DNA from: an uncultured Brevinematales bacterium
GTDB lineage: Bacteria > Spirochaetota > Brevinematia > Brevinematales > CAZQBT01
Direction of reading: 5' to 3'
NCBI GenBank assembly: GCA_964591955.1
Contig: CAZQBT010000006.1
Span: 1,809-65,808, forward strand
Length of the DNA stretch: 64,000 bases
Position 1 is the first letter of the stretch. Every line of letters starts with the position of its first letter. The notes under the pieces are model-generated. The model saw nothing but the letters and a program-made list of their open reading frames with translations. It was not told the DNA's origin and made no database searches. This document shows, piece after piece, positions 23,421 through 30,194 of the stretch. A program made the translations under genes and the position numbers.

Positions 23421-24134
23421 ATGGAAGGAGATTTAAGCGTACTCCTCGCAGCTTCTGCCTCAATCGGATTTCTACACACTATCTTAGGACCTGATCATTA
23501 TATTCCGTTTGTAGCGATTGCGCGCGCAAGAAAATGGTCGCTTCTCAAAACGTCTCTGGTTACTTCTGTTTGCGGATTGGGACATATAGCGGGTTCCGTT
23601 ATTCTCGGTATTATAGGTATCGCACTCGGAACAGCTATTTCTCAAATAGAAGTTATAGAGGAGTTTAGAGGCGATATTGCGGGATGGTTATTAATAGGTT
23701 TCGGGCTTGTTTATATGATATGGGGAATACGCCGCGCAATAAAAAACAAACCCCATACCCATACCCACACACATCCCGACGGCACAACGCATCTGCATAA
23801 GCACACCCATAACAAAGAGCATTCACATATTCACGCGGAGGACAAGCCTGTGTCGGTAGTACCATGGACGCTTTTTATTATCTTTGCGTTCGGACCATGC
23901 GAACCTCTAATCCCGATTTTGATGTATCCCGCTTTACAACATAATATCGGCGGGGCGGTTTTAGTTACAGCCGTTTTCGGTGTAGTTACTATTGCTACGA
24001 TGCTCGGAGCCGTAATTGCGCTTTATCTTGGAGTAAAGGTGCTTCCTTTCAAGCGATTTGAACGGTATGCTCACTCAATTGCGGGGGCGGTAGTCTTACT
24101 TAGTGGTATCGCTGTGGTGTTTTTAGGATTGTAA
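23421..24134 (+). CDS. His-rich nickel permease / accessory membrane protein (UreH/NiCoT-like)
   Basis: HTILGPDHY motif, GHIAGS, His-rich loop HTHTHTHPDGTTHLHKHTHNKEHSHIH and GPCE; first gene of the hydrogenase operon. Confidence 0.8.
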   Translation: MEGDLSVLLAASASIGFLHTILGPDHYIPFVAIARARKWSLLKTSLVTSVCGLGHIAGSVILGIIGIALGTAISQIEVIEEFRGDIAGWLLIGFGLVYMIWGIRRAIKNKPHTHTHTHPDGTTHLHKHTHNKEHSHIHAEDKPVSVVPWTLFIIFAFGPCEPLIPILMYPALQHNIGGAVLVTAVFGVVTIATMLGAVIALYLGVKVLPFKRFERYAHSIAGAVVLLSGIAVVFLGL

Positions 24135-24168: not shown

Positions 24169-25236
24169 ATGGAATATGCGGTATTGCCGAAAAGCGGTTA
24201 TGATAAATTCATATCGTTTTTAGCAAAACAAAAAAAACTCGTCGCTCCCGTTTATAAAGGTAATAACCATTACGCTTTTGAGCCTGTAACTAACGCCGAA
24301 CAAATCTCGCTTAGTTATATCCCGACAATTCTACCGCCTAAAAAATATTTTATGCCTCAATACGAAACGCTTGTCGAATACGATACCCACGAAGGACAAA
24401 ATATGCAGGCGGTTGTCGAATTAGAGGATTTAATACTTTTCGGTGTCCATACCTGCGACATTGCGGGAATTCAATGCCTTAATATGGTTTTTATCGACCG
24501 TCCGAGAGACCTGAACTACCTTATACGAAAAAACCACATTATTATCATAGGCTTTGAATGTAATAACTATTGCGACTCCGATGCTTCCTGCGGACTTATG
24601 GATACCTACAATCCCAATGGCGGTTACGACTTGTTTCTAACCGACCTCGGCGATTATTTCCTTGTCCATATCAGCACGCATGCCGGCGAGGAATTGGTTG
24701 TAAAAAGCAAAGCCTTTGAAGATGTAAAACCCAATCATTTTGAGGATTTAAAAGCGCTTCGTAAAAAGAAAGAGGGGATATTCAAGCCGGAAGTTCCTGT
24801 CAATCGCGATGATATTCCGAAGATGTTTGAAGAGGGATTTGACTGCGAGGTTTGGGAGGAAATCGGAAACCGTTGTCTTTCCTGCGCAAACTGCACAAAC
24901 GTATGTCCTACGTGTTATTGTTTTGACGTTAAAGACATACCTAACCTCGACCTCAAAACGGGAAAACGTATCCGTATTTGGGACTCCTGCCAAAACGAAC
25001 CTTTCGCAAAGGTTGCCGGCGGGGAAAGTTTCCGTGAAAAACGCAAAGACCGTAAACGCCATCGTTTCAACAGGAAATTTAATTATCCCGTTAAACGGTA
25101 TTCCCGCTTTTTCTGCACGGGTTGCGGAAGATGCACAAGGGTATGTATGGCGGAAATAAATCTTAAAGAAACAATAGTTGCTCTTGCCGAGCAAACGGGT
25201 TATATCAAAAAGTCCGCTAAGCAGGAGGTAAAATAG
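24169..25236 (+). CDS. hyhB: Group 3b (sulf)hydrogenase beta subunit (Fe-S)
   Basis: PPKKYF, GVHTCD, CLSCANCTNVCPTCYCF, WDSC and CTGCGRCTRVC motifs. Confidence 0.88.
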   Translation: MEYAVLPKSGYDKFISFLAKQKKLVAPVYKGNNHYAFEPVTNAEQISLSYIPTILPPKKYFMPQYETLVEYDTHEGQNMQAVVELEDLILFGVHTCDIAGIQCLNMVFIDRPRDLNYLIRKNHIIIIGFECNNYCDSDASCGLMDTYNPNGGYDLFLTDLGDYFLVHISTHAGEELVVKSKAFEDVKPNHFEDLKALRKKKEGIFKPEVPVNRDDIPKMFEEGFDCEVWEEIGNRCLSCANCTNVCPTCYCFDVKDIPNLDLKTGKRIRIWDSCQNEPFAKVAGGESFREKRKDRKRHRFNRKFNYPVKRYSRFFCTGCGRCTRVCMAEINLKETIVALAEQTGYIKKSAKQEVK

Positions 25237-26073
25237 ATGGAAAAAATATTAATCAACCGCTCAGGTTATAGAATCAAAGAAGCCAAAATCCTGCGCACGA
25301 AAAAGATGACCGAAACGGAAAAACTCTTTGAAATTGGACTCGCCGACGGCGATTCGCTTGATTACGACCCGGGTCAATTTGTAGAGGTATCACTTTTCGG
25401 CGTGGGTGAAGCCCCTATCTCGATTTGTTCCTCCCCGACAAAAAAAGGGAGTTTTGAAATGTGCGTAAGGTCAATCGGACGTTTTACAAGCGCGATGCAT
25501 CGCCTCGAAAAAGGCAATGAAATCGGTATCCGGGGACCTTTCGGCGTAGGTTTCCCTGTCCGTCATCTTGAAGGTATGGATATTTTAATGGTAGCCGGCG
25601 GGTTGGGTATCGCACCGCTTCGCTCGCTTATCAATTATATACTTGACAACCGTCGCGACTACGGTAAAGTTATGATTCTCTTAGGATGCCGTAATCCTAA
25701 AAGTATGCTTTTTAGCGATGAGGTTGACGGATGGGGTAAGCGAATGGATGTCAATTTTAATTGCACGGTCGATAAAGCCGACCCCGACTGGCAGGGTAAT
25801 GTCGGCGTTATCACCTCGCTTATTCCCGGTGTTGACATCAACCCCGAAAAAACCTATGCCGTTGTTGTCGGACCTCCCGTTATGTATAAATTCGTTATAT
25901 CGGAAATACTGAAAAAAGGTATCCCCGACTCGAGAATTCTTGTCTCATTGGAACGTCATATGAAATGCGGGCTCGGTAAATGCGGACATTGCCAAATCCA
26001 CGATATTTATTGTTGTCAGGATGGTCCCGTATTTTTCTATGACCGCATAAAAAATCTAAAGGGGGCAATATAA
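25237..26073 (+). CDS. hyhG: Group 3b (sulf)hydrogenase gamma subunit (FAD/NAD(P)-binding)
   Basis: PGQFV..GVGEAPISI, RGPFGVGF, AGGLGIAP and LERHMKCGLGKCGHC..DGPVF motifs. Confidence 0.9.
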   Translation: MEKILINRSGYRIKEAKILRTKKMTETEKLFEIGLADGDSLDYDPGQFVEVSLFGVGEAPISICSSPTKKGSFEMCVRSIGRFTSAMHRLEKGNEIGIRGPFGVGFPVRHLEGMDILMVAGGLGIAPLRSLINYILDNRRDYGKVMILLGCRNPKSMLFSDEVDGWGKRMDVNFNCTVDKADPDWQGNVGVITSLIPGVDINPEKTYAVVVGPPVMYKFVISEILKKGIPDSRILVSLERHMKCGLGKCGHCQIHDIYCCQDGPVFFYDRIKNLKGAI

Positions 26074-26837
26074 TGAATAATAAACCAAAGGTAGCATTTT
26101 TCGATTTTGCTTGTTGCGAAGGGTGTCAGCTTCAGGTAGCAAATCTCGGAGAGGCTCTTATAGATATTCTCGAAATTGTTGACGTGGTGGAATTTCGTGA
26201 GGTTATGAGCGAAAAATGGAATGAAAGCTACGATGTCTCCATTATAGAAGGTAGTATTACTACTCCTCACGCCGTTGAGCGGATTAAAAAAATCCGCGAG
26301 CGCTCAAAATTCCTTATTGCTTACGGCTCCTGTGCAACAATCGGCGGCGTCAACGGTATGAAACATAATTTCGACCTTGAAGAAATCCGTAATTATGTCT
26401 ATAAAGACGGCGCCAGATATTTCGACACCATTCCCACCAAAGCTGTTCATGAGGTCGTCAAGGTTGATTATTTTGTTCACGGATGCCCAATATATCCGCC
26501 GGAATTTCTTGAGGTTTTAAAATCCGCGCTTTCGGGATTGCCTTACTCTGTCCCCGATAACGCGGTATGCGTGGAATGTAAATTTAATGAAAATGTCTGT
26601 ATGTATGAAAAGGGATTAACCTGTGCGGGTCCCGTTACGCGCGCGGGATGTAACTCTTGGTGCGTCAATAACGGAAATATCTGCTACGGATGTCGCGGGC
26701 TTGTTTCCAATCCCAATGAAAACGGCTTTGCCGAAGTCCTTAAAAAATACAAAATTTCCGCCGAATATATTATCGGCAAGATGGATATGTATAATTCTTG
26801 CAGACTTCAAAATGAAAAGTCTAAAAAGGGAGCATAA
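26073..26837 (+). CDS. hyhS: Group 3b [NiFe]-hydrogenase small (delta) subunit
   Basis: CCEGC, EGS, GSCA and HGCP motifs, plus a C-terminal Cys-rich cluster region. Confidence 0.92.
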   Translation: MNNKPKVAFFDFACCEGCQLQVANLGEALIDILEIVDVVEFREVMSEKWNESYDVSIIEGSITTPHAVERIKKIRERSKFLIAYGSCATIGGVNGMKHNFDLEEIRNYVYKDGARYFDTIPTKAVHEVVKVDYFVHGCPIYPPEFLEVLKSALSGLPYSVPDNAVCVECKFNENVCMYEKGLTCAGPVTRAGCNSWCVNNGNICYGCRGLVSNPNENGFAEVLKKYKISAEYIIGKMDMYNSCRLQNEKSKKGA

Positions 26838-26839
26838 CT

Positions 26840-28171
26840 ATGGGCAGGAATGTAAAAGTTAATGTGGAATATTTGACCCGCGTTGAGGGTCACGGTAATA
26901 TAGTTGTAAACGTGAAGGATGGAACTCTTGATGAATGCCATCTCGACATTGTGGAAGCCCCGCGTTTTTTTGAGGGTATGATTCGCGGACGCTCTATTTT
27001 TGAAGCCCAGCATATTACCTCAAGAATTTGCGGTATATGTGCTTGCGGACATACTCTCGCATCGCTTCAGGCGGCGGAGGATGCTATCGGGTTTACACCC
27101 TCCAAACAAACCAACGCTCTTCGCAAACTGCTTCTGAATATGGAGATATTGGACAGTCATCTGCTTCATATTTATATACTTGTCGCACCCGACCTTTTGG
27201 GGGTAAAGAGTTTCGTTCCGTTAATTGCAAGTCATAATCAGGTAGTCCGTCGCGCATTGCGTATGAAAAAGACCGTCAACGACGTTTGCGCGCTTTTTGC
27301 AGGAAGGCATATTCATCCTATAACCTCAATAGTCGGCGGCTTTACAAGACTTCCGCGCGAGAAAGACCTTGAGGCAATGCTCGGCTTACTTGAAGGAATG
27401 GTCTCCGATATGAACGCCACAGTGGAACTTGCCGCGACACTCACTTTCCCGGATTTCCATCGTGAAACCGAATATATCGGGCTTGTGAATGATGAAGAAT
27501 CTTATCCGATGCTTTACGGCGATATTGGTTCTACCGACGGTGTTCGTATGAATAAAAAGGACTACAAAAAGGCTACTAACGAATTTGTTGTCCCTCACTC
27601 CTCCGCCAAGCATACGAAACTTTCTCGAAGTTCTTATGCGGTGGGAGCTTTGGCAAGACTAAATCTCAATTTCGATAAACTCCGCAAAGAGGCTAAAGAG
27701 ATTGCTAATGCCATAGGGCTTAAACCCATCACAACAAACCCGTATCTTAACACCGCCGCGCAATTAGTCGAGTGCGTTGAGTGCTTATACGATTCTATTG
27801 ATATAGTAAAAAGCCTTCAAAAGTCCGGTGTTAATTATGAAGAGGAAATAGTGGTGGGATTAAACGAACAAAACCGTATTCCCGTTAAAGCCGGTATAGG
27901 GGTTGGAGCTGTTGAGGTGCCGAGAGGGCTTCTTTATCATTGCTACGAGGTTGACGATAAGGGTAAAATTATTAACGCCGATTGTATTATCCCTACAAAC
28001 CAAAACGTCAATAATATAGAACACGATATGCGTAAACTTGTGCCTGAAATCCTCGACAAAACCGATGAGGAAATTACTCTTGCGCTTGAAATGCTTGTCC
28101 GCGCCTACGACCCCTGTATATCCTGCTCGGCACATTTTCTGGATGTTAAATTTGTCGGAAAAAGAAGTTAG
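26840..28171 (+). CDS. hyhL: Group 3b [NiFe]-hydrogenase large (alpha) subunit
   Basis: TRVEGHG, EAPRFFE, L1 SRICGIC, EVPRG and L2 RAYDPCISCSAH, plus an 11 aa C-terminal extension. Confidence 0.95.
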   Translation: MGRNVKVNVEYLTRVEGHGNIVVNVKDGTLDECHLDIVEAPRFFEGMIRGRSIFEAQHITSRICGICACGHTLASLQAAEDAIGFTPSKQTNALRKLLLNMEILDSHLLHIYILVAPDLLGVKSFVPLIASHNQVVRRALRMKKTVNDVCALFAGRHIHPITSIVGGFTRLPREKDLEAMLGLLEGMVSDMNATVELAATLTFPDFHRETEYIGLVNDEESYPMLYGDIGSTDGVRMNKKDYKKATNEFVVPHSSAKHTKLSRSSYAVGALARLNLNFDKLRKEAKEIANAIGLKPITTNPYLNTAAQLVECVECLYDSIDIVKSLQKSGVNYEEEIVVGLNEQNRIPVKAGIGVGAVEVPRGLLYHCYEVDDKGKIINADCIIPTNQNVNNIEHDMRKLVPEILDKTDEEITLALEMLVRAYDPCISCSAHFLDVKFVGKRS

Positions 28172-28634
28172 GGCAGCGCTTAAACCGTCAAGCGACGGTC
28201 TAACCCTCATTATTACAATCGGGAACGCTTTAAGAAAGGACGACGGCGTAGGTCCATATATAGCGGAGAAAATAAAACAATCACTTCCGGAAAATATTGC
28301 GCTGATTAACGCCGGGGACACCCCTGAAAATTGTATAGATGAGGCGGTCGGGTATAACCCAAAAAAGGTTATATTTATAGATGCGGGGAATTTCGATGTA
28401 AAACCGGGAACCGTATCTGTAATTCCCGAAGATGCCATACCGCAGAATTCTTTAAGCACCCATTCTTTCCCTCTGCCGATAGTCTGCGGTATTATCAGAG
28501 AAGATACGGGGGCGGAAATTGTTTTTATCGGTATTCAGATAAAAGACATTTCTTTCGGCGAGGGAATTTGCTCGGAGGTAAAATTCGGCGCAGATAAAAT
28601 TATTGAAATAATAGAGGAGACAATAAATGCATGA
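28143..28634 (+). CDS. hycI: Hydrogenase maturation endopeptidase (HycI-like)
   Basis: IGNALRKDDGVG, IDA and STHSFPL motifs. The likely ATG at 28143 overlaps the end of the large-subunit gene. Confidence 0.88.
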   Translation: MLNLSEKEVRAALKPSSDGLTLIITIGNALRKDDGVGPYIAEKIKQSLPENIALINAGDTPENCIDEAVGYNPKKVIFIDAGNFDVKPGTVSVIPEDAIPQNSLSTHSFPLPIVCGIIREDTGAEIVFIGIQIKDISFGEGICSEVKFGADKIIEIIEETINA

Positions 28635-28869
28635 ACTTCATCTTTTAAAGGATTTGATGGCGGATATATTAAAAATAGCAAAAGAGGAAAAAGCCGAAAA
28701 AATCACAAAGATTTATCTTCGGATGGGTGAATTTACCGAAATCAATCCCGAAATACTTACATATTACTTTGATGAACACGGCAAGGGAACTATTATCGAA
28801 GGAGCGACAATCAATATCGAGAAAAGCCCCGAAAGAGAGCTAACCCTGCTGTCGTTTGACTGCGATTAG
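28627..28869 (+). CDS. hypA: Minimal HypA (Ni metallochaperone) lacking the Zn-finger
   Basis: MHE N-terminus, GEFTEINPE, GTIIEGATINIE, then directly RELTLLSFD with no CxxC pairs. Confidence 0.85.
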   Translation: MHELHLLKDLMADILKIAKEEKAEKITKIYLRMGEFTEINPEILTYYFDEHGKGTIIEGATINIEKSPERELTLLSFDCD

Positions 28870-28877
28870 GAGAGCGT

Positions 28878-30194
28878 ATGTGCTATGCTATTCCGGGAAA
28901 AGTTTCCGCTATTGAGGATAATATCGTAACCGTTGACTATTTCGGTGAAAAAAAACGAGCCTATAATGAATTCGACAATCTTAAAATCGGCGATTATATA
29001 TACGCACAGGGCGGATTCGTAATAAAGACTATCCCTCCCGAAGAGGCAAACTCTATACTTGCGGTTTGGCGCGAAACCTTTTTTGAACTTCAGGAGCATG
29101 ATTTGCGTCTGTCTCGTATTGATATTGAAAAAAGCGGAGTTGAAAAACGACTTACTCTTATTCTCGACAAGGCAATCGAGGAACGCCCGCTCAGGAAAGA
29201 CGATTTTTTATACCTGCTGAACCTTCGGGACAGCGATTCAAAGAACCTGCTTTACAAAACGGCAAATTTTTTACGTCAAAAATACCTCGACAATTCCTGC
29301 TGCGTTCACGGAATAATTGAGCTTTCAAACTACTGCGCGCGAAATTGTTATTATTGCGGTATTTCGGTTCACAACAGCAAAATCCCGCGATACCGTATGG
29401 ATAAAACCGAGATACTCTCAACCGTTGAAAGCGCCGTAGAAAAATACGGGTTTAAGGCTCTTGTGCTTCAATCGGGAGAAGACCCCGCTTTCGATACGGA
29501 CTTTTTTTGCGATATTATCCGTGAGATTAAATCACGTCATGCAGTCTTAATATTTATCAGCTTCGGTGAAACGGGCTTGAAATCCCTTGAAAAATTATAC
29601 GAGGCAGGAGCGCGGGGGCTTCTACTGCGCTTTGAAACATCCAATCCCGATTTATACCGAAAACTCCACCCCGGTTATGAGCTTCACACCCGCATTGAAC
29701 ATATAAACTATGCAAGGGAACTCGGCTACCTGATAATAACGGGAGGGCTTACCGGTATTCCGGGACAAACAAACCGCGATATTCTAAACGACATCCTGCT
29801 TACCAAAGAGCTCGGGGCGGAAATGTATAGCTTCGGACCTTTTATACCTCACCCCGATACGCCGCTCGGCACTCATCCGATTACAACAAGCGAAAATATA
29901 TTAAAAACAATAGCCGTATCCCGAATAGTTGACCCTCAAAATGCCAAAATTCTCGTTACCACCGCGTTTGAAACAATAGATAAAGAGGCGAGATTATCGG
30001 GGCTTATGAGCGGGGCAAATTCGGTTATGCTTAACGTAACGCCTGAAAACCTGCGGGAAAAATATTCGATATACCCAAACCGCGCACATAACGAGGAAAG
30101 TTTGCAAATCCAGATTGATGACACGCTTTCGCTGCTGTATAGTCTCGGACGCGCACCCACCGATTTAGGCGTAAGCGGGAACAGGCAAGTCTAA
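28878..30194 (+). CDS. HypC domain fused to a HydE-like radical SAM enzyme
   Basis: Residues 1-~66 MCYAIPGKV..GDYIYAQGGFV..EEA (HypC). Then IELSNYCARNCYYCG, VLQSGED, LLRFETS, GIPGQT, GPFIPHPDTPL, GANSVMLNVTP and YSIYPNR (HydE-like). One uninterrupted frame. Confidence 0.85.
   Translation: MCYAIPGKVSAIEDNIVTVDYFGEKKRAYNEFDNLKIGDYIYAQGGFVIKTIPPEEANSILAVWRETFFELQEHDLRLSRIDIEKSGVEKRLTLILDKAIEERPLRKDDFLYLLNLRDSDSKNLLYKTANFLRQKYLDNSCCVHGIIELSNYCARNCYYCGISVHNSKIPRYRMDKTEILSTVESAVEKYGFKALVLQSGEDPAFDTDFFCDIIREIKSRHAVLIFISFGETGLKSLEKLYEAGARGLLLRFETSNPDLYRKLHPGYELHTRIEHINYARELGYLIITGGLTGIPGQTNRDILNDILLTKELGAEMYSFGPFIPHPDTPLGTHPITTSENILKTIAVSRIVDPQNAKILVTTAFETIDKEARLSGLMSGANSVMLNVTPENLREKYSIYPNRAHNEESLQIQIDDTLSLLYSLGRAPTDLGVSGNRQV

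Follow-up and report, generated by a model that had tools for sequence, protein, structure and literature searches.

A HypC-HydE radical SAM fusion in the operon slot of hypF-hypC-hypD-hypE, and the HydG-fed route to the [NiFe] iron centre that it probably serves

How does a [NiFe] hydrogenase obtain its iron centre when the last maturation gene of its operon joins a HypC-like domain to a HydE-like radical SAM barrel? The question is raised by a stretch of 64,000 nucleotides, hereafter the window, from an uncultured Brevinematales bacterium. There, a co-oriented run of genes encodes in turn a membrane protein, the beta, gamma, delta and alpha subunits of the enzyme, a HycI protease, HypA and, finally, the fusion (Table 1). 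The large subunit displays intact RICGIC, EVPRG, PTNQN and DPCISCSAH motifs. The real start of the protease is probably located downstream of the listed TTG. Open reading frames whose N-terminus resembles that of the His-rich membrane protein follow hypE in three other loci (L111-L113). The catalytic subunit of an [FeFe] hydrogenase, cut by the start of the window, is encoded on this contig as well, some 27 kb upstream at positions 27-1724.

Table 1. Features of the [NiFe] operon and of the fusion, in window coordinates.
Feature	Position	Strand	Evidence or remark
His-rich membrane protein heading the operon, likely a nickel transporter	23421..24134	+	weak NF007454 match, E 3e-4
Group 3b-type [NiFe] hydrogenase beta subunit (Fe-S)	24169..25236	+	NF040833 E 7e-73, under its cut-off
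Group 3b-type gamma subunit (FAD/NAD(P))	25237..26073	+	Pfam and NCBIfam profile searches
Small (delta) subunit	26073..26837	+	PF01058, NF040831
[NiFe] large (alpha) subunit with C-terminal extension, likely client of the fusion	26840..28171	+	PF00374; alignment
HycI-type maturation protease	28038..28634	+	TIGR00142 122 bits, over cut-off 119.1
HypA, 80 aa, N-terminal MHE motif, no CxxC zinc motifs	28627..28869	+	PF01155 54.5 bits
HypC-HydE fusion, single open frame, 438 aa	28878..30194	+	start MCYAIPG; AGGAG ribosome site ahead
HypC-like domain of the fusion, residues 1-79	28878..29114	+	Cys2 kept, His replaced by Gln44; five strands and helix 54-79 (model)
Short linker, residues 80-89	29115..29144	+	coil, block pLDDT 74
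HydE-like radical SAM barrel, residues 90-438	29145..30194	+	TIGR03956 258.5 bits; no C-terminal three-Cys cluster motif
Radical SAM CxxxCxxC, C153/C157/C160	29334..29357	+	invariant
Cys142-x-His144, candidate iron hand-over site	29301..29309	+	replaces HydE aromatic/His52 and Arg54; 145/145 fusions

The initial annotation described an intact frame of 438 residues whose HypC-like N-terminus bears the Cys2 of MCYAIPG, and this description is borne out. The frame is uninterrupted, residues 1-64 match HupF_HypC (PF01455) with 47.9 bits for a cut-off of 28.5, and Radical_SAM (PF04055) and BATS matches cover residues 147-305 and 322-406. On the HypC profile TIGR00074, the score of 38.7 bits stays under the cut-off of 48. 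The T. kodakarensis-type HypC chains 2z1c and 3vyr align to residues 1-67 (the source organism of 3VYR is named in PMC11565642), and the annotated replacement of the conserved His is found as Gln44, where three canonical HypC proteins have the His. An AlphaFold2 model based on 131 sequences (pLDDT 92.2, pTM 0.91 across both domains) places five strands and a helix (54-79) ahead of the barrel.

That barrel belongs with HydE, rather than BioB or PylB, by both profile score and fold. HydE (TIGR03956) ranks first among the NCBIfam profiles, its cut-off of 254.6 bits being narrowly exceeded (258.5 bits), and T. maritima HydE is the nearest solved structure by sequence (E 6.5e-65) as well as by fold (Foldseek TM 0.91-0.96 normalised by target, 37-39% identity). 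A PylB, BioB or HmdB identity is rejected, the scores lying far below the cut-offs (150 for 348, 97 for 225 and 71 for 321 bits, respectively) and structure identity being 28% for PylB and 19-22% for BioB; HydG is likewise far below its cut-off with 67 bits. The CxxxCxxC motif and the HydE-type motifs LLRFET, GPFIPHPDTPL, GANSVMLNVTP and YSIY, all noted at first sight of the sequence, are present in the fusion. The additional pair of cysteines reported just upstream exists as C141-C142, but only C142 is invariant (145/145 fusions), C141 being Cys in 124 of 145.

An assembly artefact or a lost stop codon is excluded because 118 of the best 120 homologs carry PF01455 and PF04055 together, at about equal length. 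Sampling of 402 genomes from two phyla moreover yielded 33 carriers of the fusion, two archaeal records add to these, and the source names of homologs include Omnitrophota, Margulisbacteria, Saganbacteria and Candidatus Caldatribacterium. All 21 fusions detected in the phylum of genome G002, a record named Omnitrophota, start with MCYAIPG or MCYSIPG, and four of them are of a short-linker form of 392-393 aa. A quickly computed tree with 53 rows unites the fusions in one branch separate from HydE (SH-aLRT 99); since it contains no PylB or HcgA rows and only one BioB row, at the end of a very long branch, this tree shows only that the fusions stand apart from HydE.

Several other features of the family may be mentioned. 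In shorter fusions (L049-L052 and L006; 392-413 aa), the helical stretch that joins HypC domain and barrel is shortened or missing altogether. In records named Woesearchaeota and Micrarchaeia (L005, L006, L119 and L120; about 0.8 Mb), the fusion adjoins hydG and a group 3b-like large subunit is encoded on a separate contig, with no hydA, hypD, hypE or hypF match. Among 28 matching plasmid records, none spans 80% of the query. The fusion proteins have been deposited under the names HydE, HydG, HypC or biotin synthase.

The distribution of the fusion was compared with that of hypD, hypE and hypF in two sets of 201 genomes, all of them drafts, whose kinship makes them non-independent so that Fisher values overstate the association. 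In the phylum of G002, where the same set served for six profile searches, the fusion occurs in 21 genomes and HypD in 61. PF00374 marks 104 genomes of this set at E<=0.001 and 82 at E<1e-10, a threshold chosen after the table had been seen, by which 22 weaker genomes, none with HypD or the fusion, were dropped uninspected. These 82 [NiFe] owners split into 60 with HypD only, 21 with the fusion only, none with both and one with neither. In the phylum of the window itself, with a PF00374 threshold of 1e-9 fixed beforehand, the 73 owners split in the same manner (60 HypD only, 12 fusion only, 0 both, 1 neither). Carriers thereby make up roughly a fifth of the genomes with a [NiFe] enzyme in the two phyla (33/155).

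A [NiFe] subunit is matched in all 33 of these carriers and in four of four further ones, two of which are archaeal and all of which are devoid of both HydA and HypD. Over the 37 distinct carriers, HypD is never matched. HypE never passes its cut-off either (0/26 and 0/5 carriers, against 4/4 controls), three carriers having weak matches of 60-82 bits. For HypF, 25 of 26 carriers have no match at E<=1e-25, and the four controls all have one, in three cases a short form under the cut-off. The profiling that the initial annotation called for thus yields 0/37 carriers with HypD and 0/31 with HypE over cut-off. In the genome from which the window derives (completeness 95.3%), HypD has no match, HypE none over cut-off and HypB none, and a tblastn search with a canonical HypC query found no second HypC. 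An isolated 528-aa frame of this genome (L014 1468-3054, minus strand, contig C7 of G000) encodes a diverged HypF C-terminal domain (126 bits for a cut-off of 466) behind an unrecognised N-terminus of 150 aa; it is possibly a relic or a repurposed HypF in a genome without hypD and hypE.

Matched operons were compared as well. Behind a membrane-bound group 4-type operon, L111-L113 have the order protease-hypA-hypF-hypC-hypD-hypE, and behind the same operon type, L114, L001, L002 and L004 have the order protease-hypA-fusion (in L002, L111 and L113, the hypA slot is held in the list of reading frames by an overlapping frame of the opposite strand). In these operons, the fusion occupies the slot of hypF-hypC-hypD-hypE. 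When 46 large subunits are arranged in a tree, seven changes of the fusion/HypD label are required, five of them forced by well-supported branches. A mere lineage effect is disfavoured by these matched operons and label changes.

Two other candidate hallmarks of the fusion system were rejected. Loss of HypB is not specific to it, HypB being found in 10 of 37 carriers and in four of nine HypD controls; the many genomes without HypB (27/37 and 5/9, respectively) suggest a minimal nickel-insertion route. The 80-aa HypA without CxxC zinc motifs is not specific either, as it occurs in fusion and HypD operons alike (also L112 6155-6397 and L114 9407-9649). The HypD operons of this lineage encode a short HypF of 353-361 aa (L111 4974-6059; L112 5092-6153) that matches only the C-terminal half of TIGR00143.

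The partner that accompanies the fusion is HydG. Its profile cut-off is passed in 20 of the 21 carriers from the phylum of G002, genome G136 having the fusion without a HydG match, and in five of five tested carriers of the window's own phylum. Neither hydA nor hydF occurs in 11 of the 21 carriers. Among the 115 genomes devoid of both, hydG is present in 11/11 carriers vs 3/104 others, that is, hydG follows the fusion even without [FeFe] genes. In 10 of these 11 carriers, hydG sits at most one gene away from the fusion or the two are joined; of the nine carriers that have hydF, eight encode hydG within about 4 kb of it.

The association can extend to a single polypeptide. Of 18 longer homologs, 16 are HypC-HydE-HydG triple fusions, another one being encoded in L038, and eight triple fusions included in the 53-row tree fall at four separate placements. 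Such architectures suggest that a labile product is channelled. The remaining two longer homologs, P0138 and P0139 (814 and 803 aa), are canonical HydE-HydG fusions without a HypC domain. HydG itself gives no sign of alteration, the dangler His and the C-terminal Cys motif being kept wherever the pattern matched. A subtype of about 500 aa, in which CTAGYRC replaces the auxiliary-cluster motif CTACYR, is encoded in L009 (1426-2925), L001, L002, L004, L038 and P0122-P0125, and the only HydG of the source genome is of this subtype. In several group 4-type operons, a gene for a Rex redox-sensing repressor is located between fusion and hydG (confirmed in L001, 11332-11982; also L002, L004, L034 and L039).

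At the residue level, 145 fusions were compared with 123 canonical HydE proteins, the latter mostly close kin of the HydE of the source genome; T. maritima numbers were taken from the sequence alignment, which reproduces residues named in PMC11826987. Invariant in all 145 fusions are the three cluster cysteines, V105, Q107, S136, L157, R159, E161, M291, Y303 and Y306, and near-invariant are M224 (142/145), T269 (131/145, Ser in 13) and K309, which is Arg or Lys in 143. Among these, Q107, S136, R159, Y303 and Y306 are presumably the HydE upper-site residues. Other positions are changed in 145/145 fusions: position 52 to Cys142, R54 to His144, T134 to F/C/I/M, R155 to G/A, G195 to I/A/M/L and others, and G226 to S/T. 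None of R54, T134 and R155 is kept in any fusion, whereas all three are kept in 123/123 canonical HydE, where position 54 is always Arg (123/123) and never His. The C-terminal three-Cys motif differs as well, with no Cys in 140 of 145 fusions and at least three in 120 of 123 HydE. In the QM/MM study of PMC11826987, R54, T134, R155 and T269 are placed on the CN ligands of a proposed Fe2S2(CO)4(CN)2 product, M291 and M224 being iron relays. Since the upper residues and the methionines are conserved and R54, T134 and R155 are lost, the synthon entry site and the relay are kept and the dimer site is rebuilt.

In the HypC domain, Cys2 is found in 143 of 145 fusions, with a gap in the other two rows, and the position of His51 is Gln in 142. 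According to PMC12134894, the iron is bound by HypD Cys41, HypC Cys2 and possibly His51, the latter being needed for activity in E. coli. In PMC11565642, HypCD binds iron via Cys2 and HypD Cys41 with a His nearby, Fe(CN)2CO is modelled on Cys2 and Cys41, and HypC alone is the proposed carrier.

We have little doubt that the fusion replaces HypD, HypE and HypF and is fed by HydG. It is also very likely that it represents a second, HypD/E/F-independent biosynthesis of the [NiFe] iron centre, in which CO and cyanide derived from tyrosine by HydG would be reworked in a HydE barrel and delivered by HypC, sometimes within one polypeptide, and which would have been swapped repeatedly with hypFCDE in bacteria and have reached small-genome archaea. 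That the fusion builds and delivers Fe(CN)2CO from a HydG-made synthon, not from carbamoyl phosphate, by the following route is probable. The handover of a HydG synthon through HypC, bypassing HypD/E/F, had been put forward in the initial annotation, and judged from gene content and residues this putative handover passes every genomic test run.

The route would start with the conversion of tyrosine to [Fe(II)(Cys)(CO)2(CN)] by HydG, as known for [FeFe] systems. Once bound in the upper site of the barrel, which is conserved, the synthon would have its cysteine stripped by a SAM radical as in HydE, and Met384 and Met316, both observed in the fusion, would pass the iron down. In the rebuilt lower cavity, the iron would stay mononuclear at Cys142/His144 and one CO would be swapped for a second cyanide, supplied either by another synthon molecule or as free cyanide that HydG releases; this swap is the weakest step of the scheme. 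By analogy with canonical HypC, Cys2 would then bring Fe(CN)2CO into the apo-large subunit, before nickel insertion by HypA and cleavage by HycI. The need for this swap weighs against the route, as the HydG synthon holds two CO and one CN whereas the [NiFe] site holds one CO and two CN. The Gln at the His51 position, the genome without a HydG match and the HypF-like 528-aa frame of the source genome also count against it.

An alternative that avoids the change in ratio assigns the fusion the role of a scaffold in place of HypD/E/F. HydG would free CO and cyanide, Fe(CN)2CO would be built de novo on Cys2, Cys142 and His144, and the cluster of the fusion would be a redox centre like that of HypD, with no cysteine stripped from a synthon. 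The 2:1 ratio of CN to CO is then obtained directly, release of free CO and CN by HydG is reported in PMC9431212, and the invariant Cys142/His144 pair could mimic the HypCD iron site described in PMC11565642. Nevertheless, a plain scaffold would need neither the complete upper HydE site nor the two relay methionines that the fusion retains, and the triple fusions suggest the channelling of a labile product. This alternative is therefore considered unlikely.

Delivery of Fe(CO)2(CN) unchanged, resulting in a non-canonical NiFe(CN)(CO)2 site, would dispense with ligand exchange altogether and fits the ratio of the HydG product (PMC11826987). The large subunits speak against it. The four-Cys, PRG and PT motifs of carrier proteins are as in HypD genomes, the PRG and PT motifs of the ligand pocket being identical in 26 carrier vs 20 HypD-genome sequences where the pattern was found, and motif and alignment comparison revealed no altered pocket. 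Carrier and HypD-genome subunits interleave on the tree, and the window's own shares 72% identity with a subunit encoded in a HypD genome. A non-canonical site is thus quite improbable.

Still less credit can be given to the fusion being an [FeFe] maturase, namely a second HydE whose HypC-like domain would be incidental or would donate iron to HydF. In its favour are the TIGR03956 cut-off, narrowly passed, and the full [FeFe] set of the source genome, which comprises two hydA, hydF, one hydG over cut-off and a separate canonical hydE. However, that separate HydE (364.7 bits on TIGR03956) is itself an objection, as are the 11/21 carriers without hydA and hydF, the 4/4 further carriers without hydA, the [NiFe] subunit present in all tested carriers and the loss of the residues proposed to hold the dimer. 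As this genome has one HydG, the enzyme would serve both its [FeFe] and its [NiFe] systems. The other option raised at the outset, that the fusion gives only CO to an otherwise normal HypCDEF pathway, draws on the anaerobic CO source being unresolved according to PMC12134894 and is scarcely credible, because carriers without HypD, HypE over cut-off and full HypF (counts above) have no normal pathway to supplement and must obtain cyanide from elsewhere too.

The fusion shares features with several known systems. With HydE (TIGR03956; T. maritima PDB 3CIX, 7O1O and 8QMK), it shares the fold, CxxxCxxC, the upper-site residues, the M224/M291 relay, the YxxY lid and the partnership with HydG; it differs by its N-terminal HypC domain, its remodelled lower site with a new invariant Cys, the missing C-terminal three-Cys motif, its own branch on the tree and its linkage to [NiFe] genes rather than hydA/hydF. 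With HypC/HybG/HupF (PF01455, TIGR00074; PDB 2Z1C and 3VYR), it has in common the N-terminal Met-Cys, the beta-barrel and helix, 31-33% identity to the HypC of sister operons and the position after hypA in [NiFe] operons. Unlike HypC, it has Gln for His51, a TIGR00074 score under cut-off and an attached radical SAM barrel, and its HypD partner was not found in carriers. PylB, BioB and HmdB/HcgA display the same barrel fold and BATS domain, but the fusion scores much lower on their profiles than on that of HydE. A possible precedent is HmdB/HcgA, a relative of HydE that acts on behalf of a mononuclear Fe-CO cofactor.

As for the canonical HypC-HypD-HypE-HypF pathway, the large subunits, HypA, the protease and the operon slot are the same, whereas the cyanide of that pathway derives from carbamoyl phosphate and the ligands of the fusion route would derive from tyrosine via HydG and radical chemistry. 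As read from its residues and partners, the fusion would be HydE-like in the first half-reaction and HypC-like in delivery, yet it lacks defining features of both; it is placed in neither family because the HydE lower site, the hydA/hydF linkage, His51 and the HypD partner are lacking.

The fusion is real, widespread and undescribed within the literature searched, which was mainly outside subscription journals and contained no paper describing a HypC-HydE fusion. The available text of PMC9431212 handles the [NiFe] and [FeFe] pathways separately. The main text of PMC11216029 mentions neither hypC nor hypD, its supplements tabulating archaeal HydE/HydG matches; that of PMC12134894 has no hydG, and that of PMC11227167 no hydE or hyp.

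If the proposed route is true, a synthon is common to cofactor assembly for [FeFe] and [NiFe] enzymes, and CO and CN can be traced to the same named source in these anaerobes, tyrosine. A maturase of two proteins, or of one, could simplify the heterologous production of [NiFe] hydrogenases. For genome annotation, an orphan hydG/hydE pair need not mean an [FeFe] enzyme.
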